Origin: a virus
Taxonomy: Duplodnaviria; Caudoviricetes
Strand: one strand, 5' to 3'
DNA length: 62,709 bases
IMG/VR virus record: IMGVR_UViG_3300010412_000012
Location: 1-62,709 of that record
Under the pieces are notes generated by a model. That model had not been told where the DNA came from. It ran no database searches and was given only the letters and a program-made list of their open reading frames with translations. Each line of letters begins with the position of its first letter. Position 1 is the first letter of the stretch. A program made the position numbers and the translations under genes. Below are positions 1 through 56,902 of the stretch, one piece after another.

Positions 1-4
1 CCCG

Positions 5-8453: not shown

Positions 8454-8680
8454 TGGTGGTAGAGATACGCTGGCTTGATGCCAGTATCGAGACCTCGGAT
8501 TTCAAAAGGAAGGAAGCGAAGAACACCAAGCCCGTAGACCGCTGGACTACAGGCTATCTGGTGGAGGAGAACGAGGATTGTGTGGTGCTGGCGACGGACT
8601 ATTACGTCAAGAAGAAGGACGGATTCGCCGCCAAGATGGTCATTCCTTGGGGGATGATTACCGAGTACTGGTACTACTAG
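8441..8680 (+). CDS. Small phage hypothetical protein
   Basis: Overlaps the upstream stop; VEIRWLDA...TTGYLV...IPWGMI pattern resembles a common small phage protein. Confidence 0.65.
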   Translation: MATVMVVEIRWLDASIETSDFKRKEAKNTKPVDRWTTGYLVEENEDCVVLATDYYVKKKDGFAAKMVIPWGMITEYWYY

Positions 8681-9156
8681 AAGGCGTACCCGATCACCAG
8701 CATGTCCTGCCCCAAGTTCGGGGTACCTGACCCTGCGTTGCTGAAGTGCCGCACCCTGATCGACCAGTGCTCACCGCCGAAGCCGAGGGACAGAGACCAC
8801 GTTAGCTTCTTGCCGAGGGCGCGGTTCGTATTCTGGAAGTAGGCTGGCCCGATACCAAGTTCCCAACGCTTGTACTCAAACACACGTTGGGCGTGGAAGA
8901 AAATGTTTTCGTCCAGCTCAGCCGGGTAACGGCAGTGACACACTTGTTTGGAAATGTAGCCACCGCCGACAGAGAACTTCCCGATACGATCCGACAGGAT
9001 CATGGCCCCACCTTCCGAGTACTCACCTGACAGGAGCGCTGGCCCGGCCTCAAGCTCGAGCGCGTTAGCCTCCTTGTAGGCGAAGAAGATGAGGATGAGC
9101 AGGAAGACGAGGATAATCCATATACCCTCGACCCCCAGCTTTGAATCCTTACCCAT
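8677..9156 (-). CDS. pagL: PagL-like lipid A 3-O-deacylase (outer-membrane beta-barrel)
   Basis: Signal peptide ending ANA; amphipathic beta strands; C-terminal RHFSNAG...PNLGQD (PagL H-x-S-N...N-x-G-x-E/D) and terminal Phe. Confidence 0.75.
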   Translation of the reverse strand: MGKDSKLGVEGIWIILVFLLILIFFAYKEANALELEAGPALLSGEYSEGGAMILSDRIGKFSVGGGYISKQVCHCRYPAELDENIFFHAQRVFEYKRWELGIGPAYFQNTNRALGKKLTWSLSLGFGGEHWSIRVRHFSNAGSGTPNLGQDMLVIGYAF

Positions 9157-20030: not shown

Positions 20031-20101
20031 CCTAGCAACCATATTAGAAGCAGGAAGAACACGAGCACAATTAGTGTTGTCCATCTGCGTAGGAAGTTCA
20101 T
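20027..20101 (-). CDS. 24-aa single-TM micropeptide
   Basis: MNFLRRWTTLIVLVFFLLLIWLLG; ATGA overlaps at both ends. Confidence 0.5.
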   Translation of the reverse strand: MNFLRRWTTLIVLVFFLLLIWLLG

Positions 20102-20739
20102 TTGAGGTATTTGTCTATCAGCTGTTGGTAGAGTGAGGGTTTCGGGGGTGGCGCAGCGGGTGTACCTTGGATGCTGGAAGTACTTGCTGATGATAACGCC
20201 TGCCCCTGAGCCGCCGCTGCCGCCTGACCAGTGAACGTGATGGTCGGGCTTGTCACACCTGTGTGAGTCGGGTACGTGACAGTCCCGGTGTTGGTAATCC
20301 ACTGTGGAGTGTTCATCAGCTGGTTGTATTGACTGTGCTGGTACTTCTTCATCAGTTCTTCCAGCTGTTCACGGTGTATCTCGGCAGCTGACTTGGGTGC
20401 TTCTGGTCGTGGTGTTACCAAGTCGAAGTCACAGTCAGGGTTCTGGCATTGGAGAGACACCCACTCGCCGGGCTTGTTCTCCAACCCGTTGTCGGTTTCT
20501 TCGATCCACAACTGGTGTACCAAGAGCAAACCTTTCTTCTCGTCCTTGGTGAGACACTGGCGGCAGAAGATGGTCTGGTGCTGACGCTCGTAACGTGCCA
20601 GCGAGTTTAGATCACGTGCTCTGAAAGGGGTGAGGTAATGCGAGCGAAAGGCATCAGGATTGAATACGCCTTCCTGCATTTCGGGGTGGACTTTGGCAAC
20701 AAGTTCGATGACCTCTTGCCGAACTTCATCAAGTTCCAT
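20098..20739 (-). CDS. Hypothetical protein with two Cys pairs and a Gln/Thr/Ala-rich tail
   Basis: CRQC and CQNPDC; first gene after the promoter at 20772-20800. Confidence 0.65.
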   Translation of the reverse strand: MELDEVRQEVIELVAKVHPEMQEGVFNPDAFRSHYLTPFRARDLNSLARYERQHQTIFCRQCLTKDEKKGLLLVHQLWIEETDNGLENKPGEWVSLQCQNPDCDFDLVTPRPEAPKSAAEIHREQLEELMKKYQHSQYNQLMNTPQWITNTGTVTYPTHTGVTSPTITFTGQAAAAAQGQALSSASTSSIQGTPAAPPPKPSLYQQLIDKYLK

Positions 20740-20771
20740 TTCATCGCCTTAATTAGTTTGGTAGATGACCG

Positions 20772-20800
20772 AAACTATCAGATGACAAGTTGCTCGTCAA
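20772..20800 (-). promoter_or_regulatory. Sigma70-like promoter for the replication genes
   Basis: TTGACG-17 nt-TAGTTT immediately after the terminator. Confidence 0.6.
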
Positions 20801-20803
20801 GAC

Positions 20804-20834
20804 AAAAAAAGGGGCCAGCCCGAAGGCCAGCCCC
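20804..20834 (-). terminator. Rho-independent terminator
   Basis: GGGGCTGGCC-TTCG-GGCTGGCCCC followed by T7. Confidence 0.85.
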
Positions 20835-20855
20835 ATGTCACACAGTGTGTGAGTT

Positions 20856-21575
20856 TTAATGATCGGGATACAGTCTGTCGTTCTCCAAGTTGTCCATGAC
20901 TGCAATAGTTAAAAGGACTTGGTTGATTTCTTCCATGTCAGGCAGATGCTTAAACTGCTCTAAGGTTTCCTCACTCCAACCAGTAGGCATTGCAGAGCGT
21001 AACTTCTGTGCCGCCATTCGGTCGGTGTATTTCTTTTCAACCAAGGACGCGAACTCGGGCCACGCACGATACAACTGACCGGGAGTGTTCACTGAGTTGA
21101 TGGTCAGGTATTCCCCATCAGCCTTCTTGAGTCTCCCGCTACCCCACACTAACGCATGTGCGTAGCTGTCGAACCGAGACTGCCAAGCGCAAAGCTGACG
21201 GTCTCTGACAACCCACGCGAGTAACTTTGTGCGTAGTTCAGGGTCGGTGATCTGCGTGTCCTCAATCTCCACTTCGGGGTACGGGAAAGAATCGTACCGT
21301 GATCCGAAGTGAAGTTTGATTCTCGGGTTCCTCGGCAAGTACTCACGCTTCTCTGATAGCGACGGACACTTGATGGACATGCTGTTGCAATGGTTGAGCG
21401 CCTTCCTTGGCGCAATCAACTCCATTGCCTCACGTTCCTCACGTGACCATGCAAACCAGTAGTAGTCCTTGGGGTCAAGAGTGTTCGCGTGCATCGTGTG
21501 ACGATACCTTGTGAACATCTGTCGCCCTTTGTTCAGCATGAACGACCTGCCGGATTGTGACAGCCGGTTACTCAT
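20856..21575 (-). CDS. Hypothetical protein, possibly Nmad5-like
   Basis: SVNTPGQLYRAWPEF resembles the T..qL...WPE motif. Confidence 0.5.
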   Translation of the reverse strand: MSNRLSQSGRSFMLNKGRQMFTRYRHTMHANTLDPKDYYWFAWSREEREAMELIAPRKALNHCNSMSIKCPSLSEKREYLPRNPRIKLHFGSRYDSFPYPEVEIEDTQITDPELRTKLLAWVVRDRQLCAWQSRFDSYAHALVWGSGRLKKADGEYLTINSVNTPGQLYRAWPEFASLVEKKYTDRMAAQKLRSAMPTGWSEETLEQFKHLPDMEEINQVLLTIAVMDNLENDRLYPDH

Positions 21576-22758
21576 CGTCCAGTTCTACGAAGATGGTCTC
21601 ACCAATAGGTGACTCCATCCCCTCACTGGTCGAACACCAGATGGTGTGATAGCCGGGGTCTTCGGGGAAGTCGCCATACATGTCTGTGAAGTAAACCACA
21701 CAGTCAGGACGAATCCCCTGTTCCTCAATCCACTCGAAAGGCGGCACAAAACTCGTCCCTCCTCCCCCGCCTAACGGTGGCGGGTTGTCCTTGAGTGAAT
21801 CACCGGCATACAACTCGTGAACCGAATTGATACGAGCATCGCAGCCTATCAGGGTTACGGCTTTCGGGGTGCAGTCGAGCAAGATGTTGTCGCACTCTCC
21901 GAGACCCTGTGCCATTTCCTTCTGCGACATAGAGCCTGAAGTGTCCACGACGAACACGATGTGACCAGCAGCGAAGCCGGTGTAGCTAGGCATGACGACG
22001 CCTTGTGATAACAACCGACGACGATGGGGTCGAGTCCACGTAGTAGCCTCTCGCCCTGCCACCTTCTGCATAGACTTACGCAACTTCTCAGTCCATGCGA
22101 CCTTCGGTTCAAGTACCTCATCCACGAACCGTTGCAGGTCAGCAGGTAACTTACCCTGCGCCTTGGCAGCATCAGCAGCACTTGCAATCACACGTTTCAT
22201 TTCGGCCTCGGTCACTTGAGCACTAGCGGGGATATGCTCGTCAAGCGTACCACCTGTGCCATGCCCCGGCCCATCCCCATCATCGGGATCGTCACGTAGC
22301 TTGCGGTAAACATCGTCTGCCATATCCTGCGAAGTGAACCGGGACGGATCATGCAGGACATTGGAAGGCATCTTGCCGATGTTACAGTTGTGCAGCATAT
22401 CGTTGATGATGTAGTCACCGGCTCGGTTCCATCTACCGTGGTCAAACGGTTCACCGTCGAAGCCCGTGTCCTGATACTGCTTGGCACGAGGCATGTGCAT
22501 CCAGATCGCATGACCAATCTCGTGACACATGACGAAGACACGTTCGGGTAGCGTCAGCTTCTCAAAGAAGTCAACGTCGAACCAGATGTTCTTCCCATCG
22601 GTTGCTGCGGTTTCGTTTCCCTTCATGTGCGGGGGAAACACATTGTCGAACTTGCCGACCTTGATACGCATGTGGTCAAGCATGATCGACGCGAAGAACG
22701 GTACATGCAAAAGCATCGCCGTTTTGACTTCCGTCAGTTTCGTGTTTTCTTCACTCAC
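21568..22758 (-). CDS. DUF2201-type metallopeptidase plus vWA domain protein
   Basis: TAATDG, HEIGH, N.AGD..IN; MIDAS motif DTSGS, GGGGTSF, YFTD. Confidence 0.85.
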   Translation of the reverse strand: MSEENTKLTEVKTAMLLHVPFFASIMLDHMRIKVGKFDNVFPPHMKGNETAATDGKNIWFDVDFFEKLTLPERVFVMCHEIGHAIWMHMPRAKQYQDTGFDGEPFDHGRWNRAGDYIINDMLHNCNIGKMPSNVLHDPSRFTSQDMADDVYRKLRDDPDDGDGPGHGTGGTLDEHIPASAQVTEAEMKRVIASAADAAKAQGKLPADLQRFVDEVLEPKVAWTEKLRKSMQKVAGREATTWTRPHRRRLLSQGVVMPSYTGFAAGHIVFVVDTSGSMSQKEMAQGLGECDNILLDCTPKAVTLIGCDARINSVHELYAGDSLKDNPPPLGGGGGTSFVPPFEWIEEQGIRPDCVVYFTDMYGDFPEDPGYHTIWCSTSEGMESPIGETIFVELDDE

Positions 22759-23353
22759 GATGATATTTCTCCTTCATTGAGTCGTATGGAACACGGACTA
22801 CGGCATTGTCCGGTAGCAGTTTATCTGCTAGACGGGCGCGAGCCTTAGCCCACGGTTCCATGTGTTCGTCAATCACCTGTCGTAATTCTGTCAGGTGTGA
22901 CTTCATCGGGTTCCAACGGGAATCGACTGCGATACGCACTACGTTCGCACCATAGGTACTCAGGTCACGTGCGTTGAACTTCTCAGTCATTACCAGCTGG
23001 GCTTCCATGTGCTTCATCAGTTCATCCCGAGCGTTCTCGTCAGGTGTCCAGATTGAACCACGTGTCTTGCCCAGATAGCCCAGCTGAAAATCCACGGTAC
23101 GCAGGATGAGTTGCAGACAGGTGTACCATCGTGAGGACTTGGAGAGCGTGTAGCCTCGACGAATTGCTGTGTCGATAGCCTTACGTTCCTTGTCACTCAG
23201 GTCGCCCATCGTCAACTCGGAATACCCACGTAGCCTGATTGGAACTTCACTGTCACTGTACTTGCCAGAGGGCTGCCTCTTGTACGTGTTCACCCATCTG
23301 TTCCATGCAGGTGTCAGCGCTTCTATTCCATGACTAGGTTTCATCAGTCGCAA
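22751..23353 (-). CDS. Hypothetical protein
   Basis: Overlaps both neighbours in the operon. Confidence 0.6.
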   Translation of the reverse strand: MRLMKPSHGIEALTPAWNRWVNTYKRQPSGKYSDSEVPIRLRGYSELTMGDLSDKERKAIDTAIRRGYTLSKSSRWYTCLQLILRTVDFQLGYLGKTRGSIWTPDENARDELMKHMEAQLVMTEKFNARDLSTYGANVVRIAVDSRWNPMKSHLTELRQVIDEHMEPWAKARARLADKLLPDNAVVRVPYDSMKEKYHRE

Positions 23354-24593
23354 ACTCCTTCATCAGATCGAAGATCACTTCCGCGTCAGCCGCCATCTGC
23401 TTGCGAAGGGCATCGTCTTTCCTAATGTCCTTCACATCGTACATAGTCAGCTTGCGCTCGACCCGGTCGCGTATGTCTTCGATCCGACCATCCTTGGTTA
23501 CATTCAGGTGTTTCAACATCGACGCCTGATCCTTCAGCTTCTCAATCATGGTGTAATGAAAGAGGGCGTCGGGGTTCGAGAGACGCTCGTAGGCGTGCTG
23601 CACAGTTTCGTACAGCCGTTGCCAAGCATCCTGCATCGCGTTCTCGAGCATCGTGCGCGTCCGTTTGTTGAGTGACTCTGCCAACTTCTGCGCTTGCTGT
23701 CCCTGAATACCATCGAAGTCCTGCCCCTTGGGGATAGGCTGGAAGTCGAAGTCCAGACCGAAGTGCTGTCGGATCACAGCAGCGTCAGGATAGTCAGCAG
23801 CGTTGTACGCGCTACCGAGTTTCCTTTGTGCTGCAACAAGATCGCTGCCGTACCCTTGAACGAACTCGTTGAGCGCCGCATCAGTCTCAGCCTTGGCGTT
23901 TGCCACCGCTGTCGTGTACTCCATGAACAGCGTATTAGGCAGCAGCCTCGGGCCTGCGCGCTTCCCGGTTTCGTTGATCCCAACTACCGACCAAGGCAAG
24001 GTCATTGCGTAGTGGGCAGTACGTGCAGCGTCAATGCACTTGTGAACCTTCTTGAGCCTTTCGTCAGCACCGGCAAGCAGGAACTTGTGAGTCTCGAAAG
24101 CAGCAGCGTCGGCACCAGCCGCAGTCGCCGCATCCTTACTCGCTTTACGATCCTTGATCTTACCGTGCCACCGAGCAGTCCGAAGTGTAACAAGTGTACC
24201 GAACTGACGAATGTCGATCTGATCCATAATGTCCTCATCCGTGAAGGTTGGAATGGGCACCGTATCGGCACCCGTTCCCTTTGAGAACATCTGTGTGGAA
24301 GGCTCTGGACTCACACACTGTGTGACATCCTCGACCTCCGGCTCAGGCTCGGGTTCGGGTTCCTCCACTTCCTCCCCCGCAGCACTAGCAATCAGTGCTT
24401 CAATGTCGTCAACAACTGGTTCGTTCACCAAGTCGTCGGCGGTGATAACGGCCTCGTCTTCCTCGGGTTCCGGGGTTGACACAGCCTCCAATGCCTCGTT
24501 GATTTGCTCGTCGGCAATCTCGTTAGGCGTTTGCTCCTCGTCTGCCAGCACGCTGTCCAGTAAGGAACTAATGTCGTCAAATGATGTTCCCAT
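23334..24593 (-). CDS. Helical protein (DUF3150-like) with a long acidic N-terminal extension
   Basis: About 120 Asp/Glu/Pro-rich residues, then a helical domain with TLPW..G.R.LPN and YP motifs. Confidence 0.6.
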   Translation of the reverse strand: MGTSFDDISSLLDSVLADEEQTPNEIADEQINEALEAVSTPEPEEDEAVITADDLVNEPVVDDIEALIASAAGEEVEEPEPEPEPEVEDVTQCVSPEPSTQMFSKGTGADTVPIPTFTDEDIMDQIDIRQFGTLVTLRTARWHGKIKDRKASKDAATAAGADAAAFETHKFLLAGADERLKKVHKCIDAARTAHYAMTLPWSVVGINETGKRAGPRLLPNTLFMEYTTAVANAKAETDAALNEFVQGYGSDLVAAQRKLGSAYNAADYPDAAVIRQHFGLDFDFQPIPKGQDFDGIQGQQAQKLAESLNKRTRTMLENAMQDAWQRLYETVQHAYERLSNPDALFHYTMIEKLKDQASMLKHLNVTKDGRIEDIRDRVERKLTMYDVKDIRKDDALRKQMAADAEVIFDLMKEFATDET

Positions 24594-24594
24594 C

Positions 24595-25674
24595 TTACAT
24601 ACCTCGCTTCGGGTCGATCAGGTTCGCCGCTACCAAAAGGTCTTGATTCTGGCGCAACCAACCGGCGAACTTCTTTGATTGCACAAGTGATGGGCCGGTC
24701 TTACGCATGGCCGCTTTGATTCCCGACACCTGAAACTCACGTGGCATACGCTTCAGGTAATCGAACGCAGGCTCAGCAGTATCTCCGTCCACACGATGAG
24801 CAATCATCTGCGTGGCAGCATACTGTGCGTCAGGCCGATCTTTGTCAGGCAGTTTGCACTTCATCGGATTGTTCACAATGTCCATGAAGTCAGGCAGCTG
24901 CTCCACTACCCGCATGAACGATACGAACTGTGCCGTAGTACCTTCACCGATTGCACCCGCGCAGAGTTCGATGAACTGGGACTCATCGAAGTAGTCTCCA
25001 ATCAGGTGTGACACCTTGCAGAACGAGCGTGGCGTGCAGAACGGCCCCGGCTTCTCAGGCACCTTGTCCTGAAAGATCAGTCCCGGCTGGCTCTTGGCGA
25101 ACGCAATCGCAGCCCAATGGATGTTGCCCTCTTGCTCCGCCCATTCGACCCACGAGTCCAAGTGCGGCTCGACCTTGAGTTCGATACGCCTGTTCTCAAT
25201 GAACGCCAGTGAGCGTTGGACACCAGACCGATCCGATTCCCGGTTCGATGCAGCTACCACCATGTACTCAATCGGTAGCTTCGAGTCACCGACCTGTCCT
25301 GCGTTGAGCAGTTCGGCAGATGGTTTCTGTACATCGTGACCAGACTGACGGTACTCATCCAAGAAGATGAATCCCGCCGCAGCATCACCCTCCCTTGGCA
25401 TCCACGGTGCCTTGGTGAACCACATTTCACGTGCTTCAAGGTCAGGACACCCATAGCCTCTTACGTCAGGTGCTTCAACGGTAGACAGGAAGAACTTCTT
25501 AACTGTGAAGTCGTCCAGACTCCATTGCTTCTGGATCATGCGTCCTGCTTGCTCGACGCACATGGACTTGCCAAGGCCCGGCCCGGATACCAACTCGACA
25601 GAGAACCTTTCACCTGTCTCAACTTGACGCTTCCACAGTTGGCTCAGCGTCGGGATTACTTGATTCAAAAACAT
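24595..25674 (-). CDS. MoxR-like AAA+ ATPase
   Basis: GPGLGKS, IFLDEY, AASNR..D, NR, TPRS motifs. Confidence 0.85.
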   Translation of the reverse strand: MFLNQVIPTLSQLWKRQVETGERFSVELVSGPGLGKSMCVEQAGRMIQKQWSLDDFTVKKFFLSTVEAPDVRGYGCPDLEAREMWFTKAPWMPREGDAAAGFIFLDEYRQSGHDVQKPSAELLNAGQVGDSKLPIEYMVVAASNRESDRSGVQRSLAFIENRRIELKVEPHLDSWVEWAEQEGNIHWAAIAFAKSQPGLIFQDKVPEKPGPFCTPRSFCKVSHLIGDYFDESQFIELCAGAIGEGTTAQFVSFMRVVEQLPDFMDIVNNPMKCKLPDKDRPDAQYAATQMIAHRVDGDTAEPAFDYLKRMPREFQVSGIKAAMRKTGPSLVQSKKFAGWLRQNQDLLVAANLIDPKRGM

Positions 25675-25677
25675 GAT

Positions 25678-26190
25678 TCATACCTCTATGTGTCGTACTT
25701 GAAAGAAAGGCACGCCCGAAGTACGTGCTATGATGTTAGCCATTGGTGTTGCCGTAAGTGTTGGCCGGTCACTGTACGGTAGTGCATAAATCATTCCGGT
25801 GAATTCGCGCACCATACGAATCCACGCAGCTGTCGTGAGACACTCATCGTCCGTGTCATACCGATCACGTAAGACGATACAGATTTGCTCCTCGTCACTC
25901 GTCTTGTAACAGAATGGTAGATAGCCTTCGGGGTGACTGGCCTCGGCTTTCAGTTTGTTCCACTCTGGTAGGGTGCAGGGGTCAGCAAAGCAGAACTCCT
26001 GCGCTTCGTGTTGCTCTCGGGTCATGTCAGGAAACAAAAGCATCGTGTTCTCCATCATGTGTTTGAGACCATCGAGTTGCCAGTAGACATCACGCAGAAT
26101 GTTCTCCATGGCTTTCTTGGAATAGTGGCTCCAATTTTTGCCAATCCTGCTCTGCATTCTGTGTACCTTGTCGATGTAGTCAGGGAACAC
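25678..26190 (-). CDS. Hypothetical early protein
   Basis: 170-aa ORF tiled in the operon. Confidence 0.6.
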   Translation of the reverse strand: MFPDYIDKVHRMQSRIGKNWSHYSKKAMENILRDVYWQLDGLKHMMENTMLLFPDMTREQHEAQEFCFADPCTLPEWNKLKAEASHPEGYLPFCYKTSDEEQICIVLRDRYDTDDECLTTAAWIRMVREFTGMIYALPYSDRPTLTATPMANIIARTSGVPFFQVRHIEV

Positions 26191-26383
26191 GGCGTTTTAT
26201 TTCAGCGAGTACGTCACGCATTGATTCATATTCAACCTTGCCCCAATGCTCGTTCTCGCCCCTCTCACACATTTCCAGATCACCGTCTAGCAACTCAAAC
26301 AGTTCCTCTGTTGGTAACTTGCTAAGAGACACGATGTGGTTTCCTCCCTTTGCTGCTACGTCCCGATGCGCCACGCTTCTCAT
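26180..26383 (-). CDS. Hypothetical early protein (true start probably near 26330)
   Basis: Tiled ORF. Confidence 0.45.
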   Translation of the reverse strand: MRSVAHRDVAAKGGNHIVSLSKLPTEELFELLDGDLEMCERGENEHWGKVEYESMRDVLAEIKRRVP

Positions 26384-26546
26384 GCTTGCGGCGTGCGGGG
26401 GCGCTGATAACGGCTTGCCTCTTTGCCAGTTCAGCCCTACGCATCTTACGGTTAGGCGCGACGGGCAAGTGTGCCTCGCTCATCGCATGTGACGACCCCA
26501 AGAAGAAGTCGGTGAATGTCTTTACTGCGCTACGGAATCGAGCCAT
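26322..26546 (-). CDS. Basic hypothetical protein
   Basis: TAATG coupling; PNRKMRR motif. Confidence 0.55.
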   Translation of the reverse strand: MARFRSAVKTFTDFFLGSSHAMSEAHLPVAPNRKMRRAELAKRQAVISAPARRKHEKRGASGRSSKGRKPHRVS

Positions 26547-26905
26547 TAGTAAATCTCCCTTGCATCTGTTACACAGTCCCACCTGTCCCCGCCGATACGA
26601 CGTTCGACAACTGCGACACCTTCCTCACACATGTGTGAGTCCTCATCCTGATTCAGCGGGTAGCGATCAAAGTTGTCGCTACTGTCACACCACAGAATCC
26701 CACGCTTGTCGCGTGCCTTCCAATACCCATCAGCACACTGATAGGCAGCTATCCTCTCCGGGTTTCCATCACTGTGTGCAGTAATGGTGGGTACCTTGTA
26801 CCTCTCTGCCGTAATCGAACAGCCTTGCAGCATGGCAGTTACCGCGAGACCGATAATCATAAAGATCAGGAACAGGAGTTCCGCTACCTTGTCATTCCGT
26901 TTCAT
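26546..26905 (-). CDS. Putative lipoprotein
   Basis: MKRNDK, hydrophobic stretch, LQG-C lipobox; four further Cys; GGAGG SD. Confidence 0.6.
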   Translation of the reverse strand: MKRNDKVAELLFLIFMIIGLAVTAMLQGCSITAERYKVPTITAHSDGNPERIAAYQCADGYWKARDKRGILWCDSSDNFDRYPLNQDEDSHMCEEGVAVVERRIGGDRWDCVTDAREIY

Positions 26906-27128
26906 CTTCAACCTCCACATGCCTGATACAGTCCCATAGTTCACGTGTCTCGTCAGGCGCGAAACAGTGGGATATGTCGGGGCCATGTCGGTATGTCACA
27001 CTTGTGTGAGTCTCAGCCTTTGCCTCCTGCCAGAACAGAATCGCTCCGACCATGTAGGCAGCAGCCAGAGACACAAGCGCGATGATAACGAGCACGACTA
27101 TGAAGTCAGGTGATGGACGGTACCTCAT
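26892..27128 (-). CDS. Small membrane or exported protein
   Basis: N-terminal hydrophobic helix ending AKA. Confidence 0.55.
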   Translation of the reverse strand: MRYRPSPDFIVVLVIIALVSLAAAYMVGAILFWQEAKAETHTSVTYRHGPDISHCFAPDETRELWDCIRHVEVEDETE

Positions 27129-27307
27129 GCCGCACCTGCCTCGCGCAGTCGCTCAACCATACGGTCAACCTCCATGCGCTTGCCAATGTACTGTCTATAC
27201 AGGCGTTCGTATCTCTGACAAATGTCCTCGTAGTGACGGACGCGCACGAACCCGAGACGATACATCAACATATCGAACAGGCTCTCTCTAAACTCTCGCT
27301 TGCTCAT
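27125..27307 (-). CDS. Hypothetical protein
   Basis: ATGA overlaps at both ends; GAGGAGG SD. Confidence 0.6.
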   Translation of the reverse strand: MSKREFRESLFDMLMYRLGFVRVRHYEDICQRYERLYRQYIGKRMEVDRMVERLREAGAA

Positions 27308-27801
27308 CTTATCTTCACCTCCTCGCCAAGCAGGATTGCTTGACGTTCGTTAATACCCATCTTCTGTGGATAGAACCTAGCGACGAATGATGGGTAGTAG
27401 TCGTCGCTATAGTCTGTGCCGAATTCCAACACCGGCTTTGCTGTTGCAGTTGAGATCAGCTGTACTATTTCACACCTGTCCTCTTGGTAACGGTCGTCGA
27501 ACTGGTAGTCAATCAGTTCCGATTGCTTTTGTGCGTGGTGTCCTATTACCTCCTCTGCCGGTTGCCATACGTGCAACGGCATTTGATTTACCACAATGAT
27601 GTCCTCCATCATTGAACGGTAGCCATCGTTCGGGTCTTCCTGCACACGATAGATCACACCGTCCAACATGAAGTACATGTAGTCCACAGGCTGATCCTTC
27701 CATATCTTATCGGGTGGGTCTGCTTCCGCTTCGGTGAACCATACACCTGAAAGCAAACCCATCCGATTGTGGAAGTGTTCGAGCCTTAGTTGTCTTTCCA
27801 T
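27304..27801 (-). CDS. Phage hypothetical protein
   Basis: EDPNDGYRS and GTDYSDDYYP motifs. Confidence 0.7.
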   Translation of the reverse strand: MERQLRLEHFHNRMGLLSGVWFTEAEADPPDKIWKDQPVDYMYFMLDGVIYRVQEDPNDGYRSMMEDIIVVNQMPLHVWQPAEEVIGHHAQKQSELIDYQFDDRYQEDRCEIVQLISTATAKPVLEFGTDYSDDYYPSFVARFYPQKMGINERQAILLGEEVKIR

Positions 27802-28127
27802 TTGATTTCCCCCACTTCGAGAGACGCATCCTTCGTTGCCTTGACGCTGAATGATGCTTGCCTGTGTCCCATGTCGCTGTCGATCTTCGACATGAGCGCG
27901 GCCATGAATGGATCGTCAGCCAATTCATTAACCGTGTTCACAATGCTAAGTACGTCCTGCATGAGATCGTACTGTTCTTGGGTGAGCAGGGGTTCACCGC
28001 AGTCGGGGCAGAGCGCCCCTATCCATGCTCCGTAGTCCTGCATGGCAATGTCTTGTTTCTCGTAGTCGCAGTTGGGATTGTCGCATACGAGTCCGTTTGC
28101 TTGTACTTGGATGGGTTTCTGTTCCAT
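27786..28127 (-). CDS. Zn-ribbon hypothetical protein
   Basis: CDNPNCD...CPDCGE.LLT; AAGGA SD. Confidence 0.7.
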   Translation of the reverse strand: MEQKPIQVQANGLVCDNPNCDYEKQDIAMQDYGAWIGALCPDCGEPLLTQEQYDLMQDVLSIVNTVNELADDPFMAALMSKIDSDMGHRQASFSVKATKDASLEVGEIKWKDN

Positions 28128-28217
28128 TGTAGTTCCTTAATTGATTGCAGTAATACTACCACAAGGGTAGGGTCTCGATCGAGCACTGTTTGTAGGAAGT
28201 CCCTTTCCATACACCTG

Positions 28218-28562
28218 TTACTCCTTGTCTATGTTCCTCTGGACGTCCGGCCACTGAAGCTGGTCGCACAGTTCACACATACCTTCCAATTCAATGAAGG
28301 TATCCTCGTCCACATCCCGGTGGCACTCAGTACAGCAGCACTTGGAGATATGGGGTTTCGGGGTCGCGTTGTACCGTGACGCTTCAGCGAACCTGTCCCA
28401 ATCGAACTTGTTGCTGTCGCGCCTGAAGTACCCCGCTATCTTGTTCGTGAGTATCGTCAGGATCAAGGCAGGGTCACGCTGTTGCTGTATGCCCTCAATG
28501 ATCTTCTGATCCTCACGCCGCAGGATCGAAGCTATCGCTTCATAGTCTTTCTTACTTGCCAT
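28218..28562 (-). CDS. Hypothetical protein with a C-terminal Zn finger
   Basis: KKDYEAIA...FDWDRF; CTEC and CELC; AAGGAG SD before ATG 28562. Confidence 0.65.
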   Translation of the reverse strand: MASKKDYEAIASILRREDQKIIEGIQQQRDPALILTILTNKIAGYFRRDSNKFDWDRFAEASRYNATPKPHISKCCCTECHRDVDEDTFIELEGMCELCDQLQWPDVQRNIDKE

Positions 28563-28833
28563 GCTCTCTCCTTTCACACACGTGTGTGACTTGTTCGTTG
28601 TACCAAGACTCGTACCCCTCACAGAAGTGCGTGAGGAATGAGCCATGCTCTGCTATTGACCCGAACCTCTGAACCAAGAAACAAAGACACACTGTACGCC
28701 ACAGCACACGTGCCTCAATCGCGTCCAAGTCAACCTGTTCAGGGGTAGAGCCACGCCGCCGATGATAACGAGGAGTGGGCGCACCGATCATCAGCAGCGC
28801 GGCTCTATAGTCGTCGTGAGTGAAACGGCTCAC
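28552..28833 (-). CDS. Hypothetical protein
   Basis: GTGA overlap; tiled. Confidence 0.5.
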   Translation of the reverse strand: MSRFTHDDYRAALLMIGAPTPRYHRRRGSTPEQVDLDAIEARVLWRTVCLCFLVQRFGSIAEHGSFLTHFCEGYESWYNEQVTHVCERREHGK

Positions 28834-29165
28834 AGCAGCACGCCGCCTTTCTTCAGCTGCCGCATGAACAGTTGGTACGGTGCCGCATCGTCACCAGCTG
28901 TACGCAACGCACGCGAGACCACCGGCCACTCGTCGTGCCAGATCATCACCCACATTGGGAAACGCCTGTCACCAGTGAACTCACGGTGCAGGACTGACCT
29001 AAGTAACCGCTGGTCTGCCCACTTCATGTCGTCCTGCCTGCAAGCTGACCGCAGCGCCGATTCAATCTTGGCATGATTGCTCCTGCATAGCGCGATGCCT
29101 TTGGATGCCATAGGCACCTGCATACAGTCCCAATCACCTGCCAGTTCCGTCTTCATGTTTCTCAT
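28830..29165 (-). CDS. Hypothetical protein
   Basis: TAATG coupling. Confidence 0.6.
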   Translation of the reverse strand: MRNMKTELAGDWDCMQVPMASKGIALCRSNHAKIESALRSACRQDDMKWADQRLLRSVLHREFTGDRRFPMWVMIWHDEWPVVSRALRTAGDDAAPYQLFMRQLKKGGVLL

Positions 29166-29476
29166 TATTCACACTCCAAACACGTGAACAGAACAGCATC
29201 ACGCCCTTCCAACTCAGGCACGATCCAAACATAGTGTGCCTCGACAGGCGTACCATCCTGACACCAGCACATCTCACATTCCGGGGTGCCGACCATCAGT
29301 TCGCCGAACATCTCAAAGTCACAACCGAATGTGGCGATCAGATCATCCATCGTGTATGCAACACGTGGCTCAAATGTACCGATACCTTCCATCGCACAGC
29401 TTGCGCGTGGCCCATCTTCCAGTACGTCGCGCTCCATGTTCTGAAGCATAATGTCTAGTTGTTTCATGTTACCCAT
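29165..29476 (-). CDS. Acidic Zn-binding hypothetical protein
   Basis: GAGGAG SD before ATG 29476; CEMC and CLEC. Confidence 0.6.
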   Translation of the reverse strand: MGNMKQLDIMLQNMERDVLEDGPRASCAMEGIGTFEPRVAYTMDDLIATFGCDFEMFGELMVGTPECEMCWCQDGTPVEAHYVWIVPELEGRDAVLFTCLECE

Positions 29477-29509
29477 GTCTATCTCCTCGTCATTCACACA
29501 GTGTGTGAG

Positions 29510-29990
29510 TTGTTATGTTTGTAACAGATGTATTTGAAAACATCTGTGTCAAACGTAAATCCATTAAGTCCATCATCGCGTCCTCATTAAGTCCAAGTTA
29601 TTTTCTCACTTGGTCACGCGAGTGTCCAGTGTAATCAGTCGCTTATCCATTAGGTATAATTAGTCCACGATTTTCAGAGAACAAACATATATAGAATTAG
29701 AGGGTGAAGGGGTTTTGGTCGCCCCGTTACCCCGGCTGTTGCTCTCGCTATGGGGGGTTGTCCTCCGAAATCTATGGACTAATTATACTTAATAGATAAG
29801 TTATTGTATTGTATAGGCGACACACACACCTATCGCGTCCATCGCGTCCATTAAGTCCAAACTCGCTGCCGAAAGTCACGGCTGATGATAACGCCCGCAC
29901 CCCTGAACCCCTAGGTTTGAAAACATCTGTTATTGAAACGTATGTCACACACCTGTGTGAAAGGGTGTTAGGGTCACGTGTCCAAAACTG
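29510..29990. repeat. Non-coding repeat-rich region, candidate replication origin
   Basis: 26-bp inverted repeat at 29642-29667/29775-29800 (2 mismatches); direct repeats TTTGAAAACATCTGT x2, CATTAAGTCCA x3, ATCGCGTCC x3; AT-rich. Confidence 0.6.
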
Positions 29991-30001
29991 CTCACGCGGG
30001 C

Positions 30002-30030
30002 AAAAAAAGGGGCGGGCCGTAGCCCACCCC
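30002..30030 (-). terminator. Rho-independent terminator
   Basis: GGGGTGGGC-TACG-GCCCGCCCC followed by T7. Confidence 0.8.
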
Positions 30031-30065
30031 CGCGCCGGTTCCCAAGCCCGGCTGTCCTCGATAGG

Positions 30066-30602
30066 TTACGAAAGCTCGTAACCGTGTTCGGCACAAACAG
30101 CTTGCAACGCCTGTATGAAAGCAGACTTGCTAGTGCTGTTGAGAATGTCCGTTGCGATCTTGTCGAGCGGATCGACCTGCGCGGCCTTGTTCTTCTTGAA
30201 GAATTCGGCTTTGATTTGTTTCACGCTCGGCGTACCCTTTTTCGACAGGCGCACGAAAATGCGCGCTACCTTGATTGCGTCATGCCATACGAAACGCTCG
30301 CAACGCTTGTCGGATTCGACCGCTTCACACAGCGTTTGCAATTCGTGATGCGACCGCAATACTGCGCGACACTCGGACATGCGGGAATCGCGGCTGCGAC
30401 CTTTCCAGCCCATTTCATCCGCAACGGCTGTCACGATTTCTTTAATGTCCGTAGCGGGTACGGCGGCGTCGTAATCTTCGCCGATGATTTCACACATGTG
30501 TGAAACGAGATTGGTCTGCGATGTTACCTTGCGATAGGTGTCTGCAAACCCCGAAACGATTTTGCTAAGTACGGACTTAGCCACCTTGTTTGTTTTACTC
30601 AC
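30066..30602 (-). CDS. First early gene, hypothetical helical protein
   Basis: GTG at 30602 with AGAGGT SD; has its own terminator. Confidence 0.65.
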   Translation of the reverse strand: MSKTNKVAKSVLSKIVSGFADTYRKVTSQTNLVSHMCEIIGEDYDAAVPATDIKEIVTAVADEMGWKGRSRDSRMSECRAVLRSHHELQTLCEAVESDKRCERFVWHDAIKVARIFVRLSKKGTPSVKQIKAEFFKKNKAAQVDPLDKIATDILNSTSKSAFIQALQAVCAEHGYELS

Positions 30603-30690
30603 GATGAATACCTCTTTCGTGGGGTGCGCCCTTCGCTCCCCTTCACTATACAAGTGATTGGAAAGGACAGGACTCACACATGTGTGAAAA

Positions 30691-30734
30691 GGGGACACCG
30701 GGGTACCGGGCCAAGGGGGGGCCGGGGTTGGGGG
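30691..30734 (+). other. G-run tract with G-quadruplex potential at the strand switch
   Basis: Six runs of 3-7 G separated by 2-5 nt. Confidence 0.6.
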
Positions 30735-30846
30735 ATCGTTTACCTCCCTCAAACATGTAACCCCCAAAAATGAAAAGTGGGCTATATACACACACTCAAT
30801 TTTTATGGTACGCTATGACTTCGTCCACGAGACGAGGAGAGCTGAA

Positions 30847-31050
30847 ATGCCCAACAACTGTTACAACTGCGAACACTTCGAGTACAAGCTCGAGAACCCC
30901 TTCGTGGGTGAATGCCACAGGTACCCCCCGACGCAGACCCCACAGCACTTTCCTCTGGCCGGTCAGCCCGAGCACTGGGGATACCCGAAAATCGAAGTGC
31001 CTTCCTACTGCTCTGAGTGGAAAGAGGCCGGACAAGGAGACTTCCCGTAA
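30847..31050 (+). CDS. Small four-Cys protein
   Basis: GAGGAG SD; CYNC...GECHRYPP...YCSEW. Confidence 0.7.
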   Translation: MPNNCYNCEHFEYKLENPFVGECHRYPPTQTPQHFPLAGQPEHWGYPKIEVPSYCSEWKEAGQGDFP

Positions 31051-55415: not shown

Positions 55416-56048
55416 ATGGCTAACATCATTACGAAATCACGACTTCTTACGGCTCCGGTTGACATCTGGACGCCGCATAAATACAGCGGCATCAAGATTG
55501 CCGACTGGCTAAATTGGCGCTGGTACCTTCAGAAGATGGGTATGCTCGCTGGCGGGTTCTACTCACAGGGCGGTGGCGGCGGCTCCGGCTATACGCTAGA
55601 CCTTGGTGTCGGTACGCCGCGAGAAATTCAGGCGGGTGGCAACCAAGACATCGGTAGTGTGTCTATCCGTATTTATGGCGGCGGTCACGCTACCCGCGAA
55701 GGTGAGGTCTGGTACCATAACTCTGCTGGCACTCTGGTGCAGCTGTCAGACTCTACGAACTGGATCGTGCCACATACCGACGCTGACGCAGAGAGCTGGC
55801 AGGCTCGGTACACGAACCTCACTGGCGACACAGGCCAGCTGTCAGGTAACGCGGTGAATACGTGGTTCAACATGACCAGTACTTCTCCCTACTACGCCGA
55901 CATTACACTCGCCGAGTCAGCATCACCGTCTACTGCGTACAACGTAACAGGTGACGCGCAGATCAGGATTGGTACTGGTACGGTTGAAGTATCTTGTACT
56001 ATCTGGCTGGATACTGAAACCAGTTCTGGTAAGGCTACCGGCAAATGA
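55416..56048 (+). CDS. Fibre-tip/adhesin-like protein, paralogue 2
   Basis: IR.YG...R.GE.W, LVQ, NWI.P, ADAE.W..R..N.TGDT.QL.GNA..TW shared with 54898-55413. Confidence 0.6.
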   Translation: MANIITKSRLLTAPVDIWTPHKYSGIKIADWLNWRWYLQKMGMLAGGFYSQGGGGGSGYTLDLGVGTPREIQAGGNQDIGSVSIRIYGGGHATREGEVWYHNSAGTLVQLSDSTNWIVPHTDADAESWQARYTNLTGDTGQLSGNAVNTWFNMTSTSPYYADITLAESASPSTAYNVTGDAQIRIGTGTVEVSCTIWLDTETSSGKATGK

Positions 56049-56902
56049 TCGTCTCTCACAGCAGGAAGTTCGTCTTCCTCCGAGTGACGAAAACAGGATC
56101 GACGACAGCGCAGATTCTTCTTCGGCTCGGAGTTCACTGGGACTACGAACAAGATCACCTGAGCAGTGCGCCGGGTTGGGATATGGCGGGTGTCAACCTG
56201 CCACCTGACCCGGACCCACTCTCGATCACATGGCGTCACGCCGACCTCGAGAGTCTGGTCGATAAAGGTGTGCTGACCGAAGAACAGGTGTACGAGTACG
56301 ATGTCTATGCGTTCATCAGAAGCCCCTACGAACGGTTCGTCAGTGGATACTTCCATACGAACATACGTGGAGACTGGGGGCCAGCTGGTCTGACCGCCGA
56401 GCAGTTCCTTCAGCGCAAGAGACAGTACCCCGGCAAGTCTGAATACTTCACCCACCAGATTGTAGGCCGCCCTCAACACCTGTGGTTCCAGTACAAGGGC
56501 GACTACATCGTCAAGCCCCTGTGCTTCGACAACTACGATGAGGAGCTGCGGTTCTTGCTCGACCGATGCGGGGGGTATCAGTTCCCAGAGATACCCCTCA
56601 TCAACAGGTCAAAGGCAGACTATCGCGGCAAGGGGAGATCGAGAGCGCACACCCGAGAGTGGGGTGCTGAAGCCATGCTCGACCCCCAAATCCAAAAGGA
56701 AATAGAGGAGATATACGGTGACGACTTCAAAATCTACACGATGGCCCGAGATGACGCCCGGCTTCGCCACGGAGAAGGAAATCCAAACTATTGTGGACTG
56801 GGTCCTAAGCCCAGAAATCTATCAAAAGATGCAGATACGTTCATGGACTATGCCCAACCGGAAGGGCGTACTGCGAACTACCCTTTTGACAAGGCGGTGT
56901 AA
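56045..56902 (+). CDS. Sulfotransferase family 2 protein
   Basis: KFVFLRVTKTGSTT, FIRSPYERFVSGY, IY.DDF. Confidence 0.85.
   Translation: MIVSHSRKFVFLRVTKTGSTTAQILLRLGVHWDYEQDHLSSAPGWDMAGVNLPPDPDPLSITWRHADLESLVDKGVLTEEQVYEYDVYAFIRSPYERFVSGYFHTNIRGDWGPAGLTAEQFLQRKRQYPGKSEYFTHQIVGRPQHLWFQYKGDYIVKPLCFDNYDEELRFLLDRCGGYQFPEIPLINRSKADYRGKGRSRAHTREWGAEAMLDPQIQKEIEEIYGDDFKIYTMARDDARLRHGEGNPNYCGLGPKPRNLSKDADTFMDYAQPEGRTANYPFDKAV

Follow-up and report, generated by a model that had tools for sequence, protein, structure and literature searches.

Ten palindromes in the early arm

What could ten near-identical palindromes be doing in a single arm of a phage genome, and what reads them? The window, i.e., the entire stretch of DNA analyzed here, spans a full IMG/VR virus record (62,709 bp, estimated completeness 98%). 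A pattern scan of the window for TCACAC-N2-4-GTGTGA returned exactly 10 matches, starting at 20253, 20838, 24311, 26625, 26996, 28574, 29494, 29945, 30490, and 30674. All ten copies listed in a first-pass annotation, which had been made from the sequence alone, were thus recovered with their coordinates and spacers. Its chance expectation of about 0.01 agrees with 100 dinucleotide-preserving shuffles of the window (mean 0.01, maximum 1, none with 10 or more), and its claim that the motif is absent from the rest of the genome holds for the full record, where no exact match occurs outside the early arm. Read backwards, the pattern has 0 matches in the window. A relaxed scan (at most 2 mismatches, spacers of 0-6) gave outside the arm only weak 2-mismatch hits, in four places (7396, 9694, 16044/16046, and 34938), and added within it only 2-mismatch hits at 21632, 22188, 28619, and 30325. 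The copies are strikingly perfect and restricted to 20.25-30.69 kb. The half-sites also cluster in the arm, which holds 18 of the 24 TCACAC and 14 of the 19 GTGTGA. The motif is more tidily stated as TCACACA-N0-2-TGTGTGA, and four copies are perfect palindromes up to the center (7+0+7, 7+1+7, or 7+2+7, the middle figure being the number of bp between the 7-mers). The sites and surrounding elements are as follows:

30603..30846, no strand: divergent control region from g1 to the first plus-arm gene, with palindrome 1 and a family-wide conserved non-coding block
30674..30687, no strand: palindrome 1, 7+0+7, between the divergent genes, followed after 23 nt by a -10-like hexamer (30645-30650, minus strand) that precedes g1; orthologous copy in L007
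30066..30602, minus strand: g1, the first early gene, 178 aa, basic, all-helical, no known fold
30490..30503, no strand: palindrome 2, within g1, about 100 nt into the CDS
30008..30031, minus strand: intrinsic terminator T1, directly after g1; 10 pairs (8 G-C), then a T-run
29945..29960, no strand: palindrome 3, 7+2+7, 47 nt downstream of T1, opening a non-coding stretch of about 0.5 kb; ortholog in L007
29509..29944, minus strand: non-coding stretch flanked by palindromes 3 and 4, with its own repeats and promoter-like boxes
29494..29508, no strand: palindrome 4, 7+1+7, adjoining the Shine-Dalgarno that serves the ATG at 29476, with 17 nt between palindrome and ATG; counterpart in L007 shifted, within the same non-coding stretch
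28574..28589, no strand: palindrome 5, a perfect 16-mer at the 3' end of ORF 28552-28833, 11 nt 5' of the ATG at 28562 and immediately ahead of its Shine-Dalgarno; same place in L007
26996..27009, no strand: palindrome 6, inside ORF 26892-27128; ortholog in L007
26625..26638, no strand: palindrome 7, inside ORF 26546-26986; no L007 ortholog
24311..24325, no strand: palindrome 8, in the indel-rich linker of a conserved 419-aa gene (23334-24593)
20838..20852, no strand: palindrome 9, past the stop of ORF 20856-21575 and 3 nt 5' (minus strand) of T2, a strong terminator
20811..20834, minus strand: intrinsic terminator T2, closing the palindrome-bearing part of the arm; conserved in relatives
20253..20266, no strand: palindrome 10, the last copy, inside ORF 20098-20739 and directly ahead of the DNA polymerase gene; no L007 ortholog

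By the gene model, the copies said to lie inside ORFs are indeed six (30490, 28574, 26996, 26625, 24311, and 20253). The neighbors reported for other copies are also in place: T2 for 20838, a Shine-Dalgarno and start codon for 29494 and 28574, and the divergent intergenic region for 30674. Comparison of the flanks shows that the 24311 copy is the reverse complement of the 20838 copy over 20 bp, as had been noticed, and inspection against the CRP consensus agrees that these are not CRP sites.

Relatives carry their own palindromes at homologous places

The window belongs to a family of environmental podophages of ~60-65 kb. The syntenic relative G001/L007, with ~77% DNA identity to the window, has 8 distinct ACACACA-N1-2-TGTGTGT sites, all in the homologous arm, at 43.3-52.6 kb of a 63.9-kb record. 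Seven of these are homologous in position to copies of the window, and at all 7 the outer base pair differs between the two phages; the 40-nt flanks are 70% identical (392/560). Across the family, 26 of the 29 non-redundant loci have at least 4 copies of their own lineage-specific early-arm palindrome, with half-sites such as ACACACA, TTACACA, TTACAAC, TTAACAG, and TTGCTAG, whereas shuffled relatives have 0-0.6 palindromes per locus. Motif classes shift stepwise along the ATPase and DNA-polymerase trees, and within each genome all copies change sequence in concert.

The positions are conserved down to lineages with only ~50% protein identity. The places that recur are beside the first early gene, within it, within the 419-aa gene (23 of 28 family loci have a copy in the corresponding part), and immediately ahead of the arm terminator (25 of 27 loci before T2, with a terminator-like hairpin and T-run within 15 nt after the copy in 18 of the 27). 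Inside conserved genes, the protein sequence is bent to suit the local motif. For instance, palindrome 2 has orthologous copies in the coding sequence in L007, L009, L023, L028, and others, and the encoded peptide shifts with the local palindrome. Rhizobium phage RHph_TM3_14A has 34 sites spread over all arms of its genome, their two halves parted by 5-6 variable bases; they often directly follow stop codons, including that of the major capsid gene.

The first-pass annotation had proposed a cis-acting marking of the early arm, read by the phage, and a scan of the genome and relatives as a check. The scan, arm-confined in the window and positive for palindromes of the same build in relatives, strongly supports this idea, since relatives keep the architecture, the arm, and often the positions as the sequence changes. 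Concerted lineage-specific sequence at conserved positions implies a co-evolving reader encoded by the phage. The palindromes thus appear to belong to a phage-specific recognition system not described before, which probably controls early gene expression.

Duplex DNA or RNA hairpin

About a third of the sites (60/189) are adjacent to a ribosome-binding site, compared with 576 of 4,800 random positions, with a modal distance of 13 nt between palindrome end and start codon. This adjacency and the conserved site before the terminator are compatible with a role in RNA no less than with one in DNA, which weighs against operators.

The 7+1+7 layout was found in 137 of 201 sites, where the seventh pair is complementary beside a single central base. 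This base is C in 78 sites and G in 59, never A or T, and it is oriented at random with respect to transcription (26 C and 16 G beside ribosome-binding sites, 49 C and 40 G elsewhere; Fisher p = 0.57). The two-fold symmetry is therefore retained where a hairpin has no use for it. No asymmetric element, of the -10 or -35 kind for example, is conserved beside the sites. As judged by eye, a conserved -10-like box closely follows the first site in the window, L007, L009, L012, L022, L030, and for the first L028 copy, and closely precedes it in L011, L017, L018, L019, L020, L026, L029, L031, and for the second L028 copy. With the promoter assigned by eye, both placements are classical operator positions. 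Because the symmetry extends to the center, the C:G center occurs either way, and copies are found on both sides of the putative promoter, we infer that DNA rather than RNA is read. We thus tentatively favor the palindromes as duplex-DNA operators of a phage-encoded, sequence-specific factor that is two-fold symmetric and co-evolves with its sites.

The distance between the 7-mers varies in the window (0, 1, or 2 bp), in L025/L030, and in L040, and a rigid dimer should not tolerate such variation, which weighs against operators. It had been taken earlier as a sign of hairpins or of independent half-site binding; this agrees with the window but not with most relatives, whose genomes have a single fixed spacing. 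In L104, all 7 copies share an asymmetric center in one orientation, which has a ~1.6% chance if orientation is random, so that reading is strand-specific in that lineage. L029 has 3 symmetric variant copies and one G.T hybrid on the sense strand, resembling a compensatory change in a helix. These two cases, together with the hairpin-like pattern of RHph_TM3_14A, also count against operators.

If the sites are operators, early regulation could proceed as follows. Starting in the divergent control region (~30.6-30.8 kb), the host RNA polymerase would transcribe leftwards through the early arm, and the factor, once made, would fill all ten sites. Sites 1 and 2 (~180 bp apart) would bracket the g1 promoter region, sites 3 and 4 (~450 bp apart) a second non-coding, putatively promoter-bearing region, and sites 9 and 10 (~590 bp apart) terminator T2 with the promoter-like sequence that follows, the other sites lying at or near cistron junctions. 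We infer repression as the effect: occupied sites would occlude promoters or form loops and would block elongation, thereby shutting off or re-timing early transcription. A phage that appears to be virulent would here use the logic of dispersed operators, or "stoperators", for which the L5-type and KorB sites discussed below are precedents. As the most likely reader, g1 would also regulate itself.

Other readings of the palindromes

The palindromes could instead act as RNA, in the form of hairpins that punctuate the early polycistronic transcripts and are read by a phage RNA-binding protein, possibly g1. They could then cause anti-termination at T1 and T2, endonucleolytic cleavage between cistrons, or translational repression at the ribosome-binding sites they abut. 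We regard this as a serious rival, though less likely than operators, and several observations fit it: the enrichment at ribosome-binding sites with its modal distance, the copy 0-15 nt 5' of the arm terminator in 18/27 loci, the basic character of g1, and the order site-g1-terminator-site, which resembles the lambda pL-nutL-N-tL1 layout. The variable spacer, or loop, in the window, L025, and L040, the uniform centers of L104, the symmetric variant and G.T intermediate of L029, and the stem of RHph_TM3_14A with its variable loop, often just past stop codons, fit as well. Yet the seventh pair is kept complementary, which is useless to a 1-nt "loop", and with either C or G at the center without transcriptional bias, two loops would have to be read equally well. 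What is conserved is the stem sequence, rarely read by RNA-binding proteins. The RNA stems of the ten window sites are also weak (-3.5 to -7.2 kcal/mol), making a passive structural role unlikely, and non-Watson-Crick pairs on the sense strand show no excess of G.U (8 G.U-compatible against 13 A.C/C.A). Finally, in about half of the lineages the putative -10 box, assigned by eye, comes after site 1, which may thus be untranscribed.

Three further explanations appear improbable to differing degrees. Selfish or recombinogenic repeats lacking a regulatory reader, either REP-/MITE-like insertions or "linker" cassettes for module shuffling, would account for copies that are identical within a genome (including the asymmetric center common to all L104 copies), for the tandem copies of L025 with their 20-bp period, and for the preference for cistron junctions in a region of fast-turnover orphan genes; the PeSL promoter/stem-loop cassettes of T4-type phages are a reported precedent (PMC2839356, PMC4122927). 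This is improbable, as positions are kept at ~50% protein identity while the sequence is swapped in concert, even inside conserved genes, the elements measure merely 14-18 bp, and searches with Pfam and PHROGs found no transposase, RAYT, or homing enzyme. It is quite improbable that the palindromes are extruded DNA hairpin promoters, as in N4, for an unrecognised phage RNA polymerase residing, e.g., inside the giant virion protein. The family does share an N4 gp24-like ATPase and a neighboring VWA protein with N4-like phages, which are also the more distant ATPase matches; a 5-7 bp stem with a 3-4 nt loop has the size of N4 and LUZ7 hairpins (PMC9163698); copies stand ahead of early genes; and the giant protein (>2,500 aa) has an unannotated N-terminal half. 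However, neither an RNA polymerase in the 60 ORFs scanned (PHROGs, Pfam, and PDB sequence search) nor a DxDGD motif in the giant protein was found, a LUZ7-like start 13-14 nt from the hairpin center would fall inside or after the next gene's Shine-Dalgarno, a perfect palindrome would fire both ways, given the random orientation of the center, and 6 of the 10 copies are intragenic. Least probable of all are signals for DNA entry or protection, in which the early arm would enter first and the sites would mark a pause or hand-over in stepwise ejection, or bind a co-injected protective protein. The sites lie within ~10 kb adjoining the strongly conserved non-coding block, a possible genome end or packaging site, and genes for co-injected giant and "DNA transfer" proteins are present. 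But the break in the window record falls within the giant gene, G001 has its terminal repeat elsewhere, RHph_TM3_14A has its sites genome-wide, and nothing ties the sites to ejection.

The product of the first early gene as candidate reader

The best candidate reader of the palindromes, judged from sequence, is g1, which is hypervariable. In each of the 18 loci extending to the start of the arm, the first gene past site 1 is g1. It comes in two subfamilies that are homologous to each other (hhalign probability 95.9%, E 6e-9), and all 128 aligned members are basic (pI >8.8, median 9.9). Between the window and L007, g1 is the most diverged orthologue, with 32% identity compared with 53-95% for other early proteins. 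Motif distance correlates with g1 distance (Mantel r = 0.63; partial r = 0.59 when controlling for the ATPase, p = 2e-4), a signal that partly reflects shared phylogeny; the ATPase leaves no residual signal (r = -0.14). One of the palindromes is carried by g1 itself. The g1 model matched no DNA-binding fold among known folds, and no g1 homologue was detected in RHph_TM3_14A.

Earlier, the RHH protein at 31903 had been put forward as candidate reader beside the 30066-30602 product. Its conservation extends to 15 distinct loci, but it is a poor candidate: its beta-strand pattern R-x-H-x-(I/M) is invariant in 13 of 14 aligned relatives (L040 differs) despite their different palindromes. The suggestion of RHH is thus unsupported, and g1 is the better choice by position, divergence, basicity, and the Mantel analysis.

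Likeness to known systems

Our literature search found no printed description of this palindrome system. A close likeness may be drawn with the operators and stoperators of the immunity repressor of mycobacteriophage L5 (Cluster A), located in promoters and short intergenic spaces (PMC9283540). In both cases many copies of one short site extend over kilobases, at promoters and in short gene gaps, the site varies by lineage together with the phage's own reader, and a block of both initiation and elongation is proposed (PMC9283540, PMC6550527). L5 sites differ in being asymmetric 13-mers, bound by a monomer, oriented with transcription, and found genome-wide in a temperate phage whose reader is an HTH repressor, whereas those of the window's family are perfect palindromes with random center orientation (except in L104), in the early arm only. 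Neither an integrase nor a repressor was found, and the candidate reader has no recognisable HTH.

The OB operators of KorB (plasmid RK2; a global regulator of the ParB family) occur in many copies, some at promoters and others far off or intragenic, and serve a whole regulon. They are likewise short palindromes with a central G/C (PMC11790492). KorB belongs to a plasmid rather than a phage, the sites of the window are limited to one arm, and the ORFs scanned yielded no ParB/KorB-like domain.

The hairpin promoters of N4-like phages (vRNAP; LUZ7 RNAPII) share element size, early location, and lineage specificity with our sites (PMC9163698), and the gp24-like ATPase indicates a distant kinship. 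Here, in contrast, searches found no phage RNA polymerase, the loop shows neither conservation nor orientation, and a leader would not fit between the site and the next gene.

In lambdoid phages, a lineage-specific boxB/nut hairpin co-evolves with N, a small basic protein whose gene comes first among the early genes and has a terminator behind it. There, one or two sites serve each operon, N reads the loop, and boxA accompanies boxB, whereas here there are ten copies with variable loops and no conserved flank. The conserved inverted repeats (CIRs) bound by the phiC31 repressor are palindromic operators of high conservation that recur between genes of the early region, including one copy at the gene of the repressor itself; phiC31 differs from the present phage in being a temperate Streptomyces phage whose repressor is known.

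Palindromes in the early arm

The palindromes of the window form a real, strongly non-random and evolutionarily conserved system of cis-elements. Our search recovered exactly ten copies of TCACAC-N2-4-GTGTGA, where dinucleotide-preserving shuffles of the window give a mean of 0.01. Number, coordinates and spacers agree with the first-pass annotation, and its claim that the element is confined to the early arm also holds: since a search allowing two mismatches and spacers of 0-6 yielded no convincing extra copy anywhere in the window, all copies are perfect and lie within 20.25-30.69 kb. The pattern read backwards has no match in the window. Judging from the flanks, the preferred form of the element is TCACACA-N0-2-TGTGTGA. 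The consensus of CRP is TGTGA-N6-TCACA; here the half-sites are arranged the other way round and only 2-4 nt separate the hexamers, and the earlier statement that these are not CRP sites is thus correct. When folded as RNA, the ten copies give weak hairpins (-3.5 to -7.2 kcal/mol, stems of 5-8 bp, loops of 3-4 nt). Rfam and tRNA scans of the window gave no match, and no near-identical sequence to the 11-kb arm was present among 50,697 phage records. In the literature searched, we found no description of such palindromes in phage early regions.

The record looks complete (62,709 bp, estimated completeness of 98%). The following layout was derived from ORF lists, start-codon contexts and family scans:

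From 30847, plus strand: late arm, with a ribbon-helix-helix (RHH) protein, terminase, portal, capsid, tail fibres, lysis genes and a giant virion protein
Between the two arms, 244 bp: divergent control region
30602 down to 8677, minus strand: early/replication arm, the palindrome-bearing half of which is ordered as follows
30066-30602, minus strand: g1, the first early gene (178 aa)
30031-30008, minus strand: T1, a strong intrinsic terminator after g1
Next: a 0.5-kb non-coding stretch
Next: about 15 orphan genes
Next: a MoxR-type ATPase, a 419-aa protein (23334-24593) and a DUF2201 metallopeptidase/VWA protein
20834-20811, minus strand: T2, a second strong terminator, at the end of the palindrome-bearing half

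The palindromes are limited to this promoter-proximal half of the minus arm, and the replication genes beyond T2 (DNA polymerase, exonuclease, helicase, primase) are without copies.

Conserved positions and changing motifs in related phages

A scan with the ATPase identified a relative, G001/L007 (63.9 kb), which is syntenic with the window at around 66-86% DNA identity. TCACAC..GTGTGA is entirely absent from this genome. It carries eight ACACACA-N1-2-TGTGTGT sites, which within its record are confined to the homologous arm, and seven of them are positionally homologous to window copies, including those inside g1, before the ribosome-binding site (RBS) at 28562, inside the 419-aa gene and before T2. 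The flanks of these sites are 70% identical between the two genomes (392/560), yet both outer bases have changed together at every site.

Using an alignment of the ATPase, we collected a family set of 43 viral and 80 metagenomic loci and called the motifs of each lineage by counting inverted repeats de novo. The perfect palindrome differs from lineage to lineage and occurs in 5-14 copies per genome compared with 0-0.6 in shuffles. The half-sites include TTACACA, TTACAAC, TTACAAG, TTACACC, TTACTCA, TTAACAG, TTAACTG, TTGCTAG, TCACACG, CCACACA and TTACATG, among others, and on the ATPase and polymerase trees the motif classes change gradually, one mirrored step at a time. Conservation in related phages, which a functional role had implied, is borne out: leaving out near-duplicates (L006, L021, L027, L030, L088, L092, L105, L113, L124) and loci under ~8 kb, at least four copies occur in 26 of 29 non-redundant loci, while most of the arm is missing from the other three. 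The N-terminal part of the 419-aa gene contains a copy in 23 of 28 loci. In 25 of 27 loci a copy marks the end of the arm, and in 18 of the 27 a terminator-like hairpin and T-run come at most 15 nt after it. On the sequences compared, such fixed stations and concerted rewriting bear the signature of sites co-evolving with a trans-acting reader, and are not what chance palindromes, passive structure or recent insertions would leave.

Some lineages depart from the common arrangement. In the non-coding stretch after g1, L025 carries five head-to-tail copies of its palindrome with a 20-bp period (L025:6214-6307), and L030 carries two of the same kind (L030:6269-6301); the L025 array looks like a local operator array. 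In L029 (sites 5053, 6352, 8733, 12253), the word TTAACAG coexists with its mirrored variant TTAGCAG and with one hybrid, which may represent a specificity change in progress.

Among the more distant KPP25-like relatives (ATPase identity of 24-39%), nine of 11 loci have no repeated palindrome, and L034 and L038 are ambiguous. The cultured relative RHph_TM3_14A (MN988472.1, comprising L049, L048 and L050) has 34 TTACC-N5-6-GGTAA sites, for 0.38 expected. They are spread over all its arms, and 14 of the 34 are within or at the edge of the 9.8% of the DNA that is non-coding. Many directly follow stop codons, for instance behind the major capsid gene and between convergent genes. These repeats appear to be undescribed so far.

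Candidate reader proteins

The first-pass annotation had proposed the RHH protein as the binder of the palindromes and had also named the product of 30066-30602, i.e., g1. The RHH protein (Pfam RHH_3, E = 2.9e-7) is conserved in 15 distinct loci. We reject it as the reader, since 13 of 14 aligned relatives share the R-x-H-x-(I/M) pattern of its DNA-facing strand unchanged in spite of differing words (L040 being the one that differs), and changes at the variable position between R and H are not correlated with the motif. A conserved function beside the terminase is more probable for this protein. The small Cys-rich first gene of the plus arm (30847-31050), also considered, has no relatives among the loci.

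Of the two named proteins, g1 makes the stronger candidate. In all 18 loci that reach the start of the arm, its gene immediately follows the first site. Its coding sequence contains a copy of the palindrome, with a peptide that adapts to the local word, and no other orthologue has diverged nearly as much between the window and G001 (32% vs 53-95%). The family comprises two homologous subfamilies (hhalign probability of 95.9%) and at least 209 clusters without annotation, and is basic in all 128 aligned members. Motif distance tracks g1 better than the ATPase (partial Mantel r = 0.59, p = 2e-4, 17 loci), a signal much of which the trees show to be shared descent. The model of g1 is confident (pLDDT of 92.7) and has eight helices. 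It matched none of the known DNA- or RNA-binding folds, Foldseek returned nothing at E <= 0.001, and the best match of a wide VIA search, at Z = 6.5, was to generic helical bundles. No homologue of g1 was detectable in RHph_TM3_14A, though sites are present there.

Recognition as DNA or RNA

That the palindromes are operators on double-stranded DNA is the reading we tentatively adopt, at just short of an even chance. The 7+1+7 form accounts for 137 of 201 sites (22 loci), and its seventh pair is complementary even though a one-base loop forbids pairing there. The central base of these 137 sites is C in 78 and G in 59, never A or T (in L103, a small lineage outside the 22-locus count, it is A in 3/3 sites), and the orientation of the centre (C 75 / G 56) is unrelated to transcription or context (Fisher p = 0.57). 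Most genomes use a single fixed spacing, and mismatched pairs show no G.U-compatible excess on the sense strand (8 vs 13). Together, these properties argue for double-stranded DNA bound by a two-fold symmetric protein. So do the weakness of the RNA hairpins, the lack of any conserved asymmetric flank or promoter element around the sites, and the location of the first site on either side of the conserved -10-like box (window 30645-30650, minus strand), upstream in seven cases and downstream in nine as counted by eye.

A role of the palindromes as RNA signals is the main rival reading, which we consider less likely. Several observations point to a hairpin, most simply one in RNA. Spacing is variable in the window, in L025/L030 and in L040; all seven copies in L104 have an asymmetric centre in one orientation, a state found only in this locus; and L029 combines its symmetric variant word with a G.T hybrid. 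Moreover, 60 of 189 family sites adjoin the RBS of the next gene, compared with 576 of 4,800 random positions, the station directly before the terminator is conserved, and the sites of RHph_TM3_14A lie in all arms, often straight after stop codons. One may read these data jointly with those on g1 as a private "address code" of a widespread group of uncultured podophages: a palindrome of 14-18 bp, present in 5-14 copies at set places in the early arm and changed in concert in each lineage, would be read in hairpin form (RNA or extruded DNA) by the fast-evolving, basic, new-fold g1, the product of the earliest expressed gene. The early operon would thereby be punctuated through anti-termination, processing or translational gating. 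We regard this combination as unlikely; if true, it would extend N/nut-like or Cas6-like logic over the whole arm and be distinct from every described phage regulatory system. Readings other than DNA operators and RNA signals share the rest of the weight.

Comparison with known systems

The palindrome system behaves as a dispersed operator network, yet is a member of none of the families with which we compared it. The closest described systems are L5-type stoperators, KorB OB operators, the conserved inverted repeats of phiC31, the boxB/N pairs of lambdoid phages and, in form, the hairpin promoters of N4-like phages; each has at least one defining feature that is not found in the window's system. 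For the phiC31 repeats, our literature search found nothing relevant. In lambda-type nut sites, N reads a conserved loop, boxB is partnered by boxA, and an operon has only one or two copies, whereas in the window's family loops vary, there is no conserved flank, and the window has ten copies. REP/RAYT palindromes occupy non-homologous places and depend on a Y1 transposase; the positions of the family are instead conserved, and no transposase was matched in the ORFs scanned.

According to PMC9283540, the stoperators of L5-type phages are many copies of one site, placed in promoters and short intergenic spaces. They are asymmetric and oriented with transcription, and a cognate HTH immunity repressor of the temperate phage binds them and halts the elongating RNA polymerase. 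The window resembles them in having many copies of one site (10), and its family in the enrichment of sites at the RBS. Unlike stoperators, the family's sites are palindromic with a context-free orientation of the centre, L104 alone being asymmetric and co-oriented. No HTH, repressor or integrase was matched in the ORFs scanned, the small ones being partly covered. KorB OB operators (PMC11790492) are short palindromes centred on G/C, and their many copies lie close to promoters as well as far from them; the family sites are likewise short palindromes, with a central C/G in all 137 sites that have a 1-bp centre, near and far from promoters. The reader of the KorB system is a ParB-family CTPase encoded by the element, and a ParB-like domain had no Pfam or PHROG match in the 60 ORFs scanned (small ORFs partly covered). 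The palindromes also resemble in form the hairpin promoters of N4-like phages (PMC9163698), with a short stem, a loop of about 3 nt and a place in the early region. However, no phage-encoded (virion or early) RNA polymerase was detected for the window phage. N4-type transcription starts 13-14 nt from the hairpin centre and has a conserved oriented loop, whereas the centre orientation of the family is random; the modal distance from the palindrome end to the start codon is 13 nt, so that an N4-type start would fall inside or after the Shine-Dalgarno sequence.

Proposed mechanism

The ATPase of the window is of the N4 gp24 kind, and among named phages the nearest by DNA polymerase are RHph_TM3_14A of Rhizobium (37%) and KPP25 of Pseudomonas (32%). 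When the large proteins without annotation were searched against PHROGs, Pfam and PDB sequences, no phage RNA polymerase emerged, a very divergent enzyme being possible, and the DxDGD motif is absent from the giant protein. A split polymerase made of the conserved 419-aa and 239-aa early proteins was also considered and rejected: the former matches only DUF3150 phage proteins and the latter nothing. Since no phage RNA polymerase was detected, we assume that the host enzyme transcribes the arm, in which a sigma70 scan gave three matches for 8.8 expected. Two RNA runs contain related sequence, in the form of contigs from relatives that display no transcript ends.

Host polymerase would start at the divergent region and produce g1 first, as a unit closed by T1; the reader would then occupy the palindromes. 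Pairs of sites bracket the promoter region of g1 (~180 bp apart), the second non-coding region (~450 bp) and T2 with the sequence that follows it (~590 bp), and the remaining sites are at cistron junctions. From this anatomy we infer repression and looping: the geometry of the pairs would suit repression by occlusion or looping, plus roadblocks, and the early arm would be switched off or re-timed as the replication genes take over.

If true, this would be a natural experiment on the co-evolution of a regulator with its whole set of sites, with at least 12 specificities, single mirrored base changes and conserved stations in otherwise collinear genomes. It would also reveal the timing of early genes in a large group of environmental phages, which come from marine sediment, soil and mangrove samples, in which we detected no phage polymerase, and whose core family is without a cultured member. 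Practical outcomes would be orthogonal site/reader pairs for synthetic biology, a simple sequence signature delimiting the early arm in metagenomic phage contigs, and a testable role for the g1 family.

Control regions and other features

Approximately 200 bp upstream of g1 (window 30690-30800, minus strand) are conserved family-wide, though the proteins are only ~50% identical. The block, which has a C-rich part, is also present in L007, L009, L011, L012, L015, L017-L020, L022, L023, L026 and L028-L031; further upstream, a hexamer can be read in many relatives as a perfect -35 on the opposite strand. The conserved region could correspond to the divergent promoters, to a structured leader, or to a site for packaging or a genome end. 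When the block was used as a DNA-pattern scan, 12 of 37 matches were true family loci, only three of them new.

Several repeats are found in the non-coding stretch between two palindromes at 29509-29944. A 15-nt sequence is directly repeated (29533-29547 and 29916-29930), another of 12 nt occurs three times (29562, 29585, 29849), and an imperfect inverted repeat of 43 nt (29642-29684 / 29758-29800) has a -10-like box in each arm. Rfam gave no match in this stretch, whose function may be that of a second promoter region, an origin or a small RNA gene.

In the 419-aa protein, the C-terminal half matches DUF3150 proteins of cyanophages, and the indel-rich N-terminal linker houses the conserved intragenic palindrome. 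The giant virion protein (~2,570 aa) has no Pfam or PDB sequence match, and its matches to PHROG families, which carry the label "DarB-like antirestriction", are limited to the C-terminal 1,000 aa. Its gene runs from 61849-62709 into 2-6862 and is thus cut by the record ends, hence the record is probably circularly permuted. Finally, 8677-9156 (minus strand) and 56045-56902 (plus strand) are possible host-surface modifying genes, of which one contains a lipid A deacylase domain of PagL type (E = 1.2e-8) and the other is a sulfotransferase (E = 1.1e-10).
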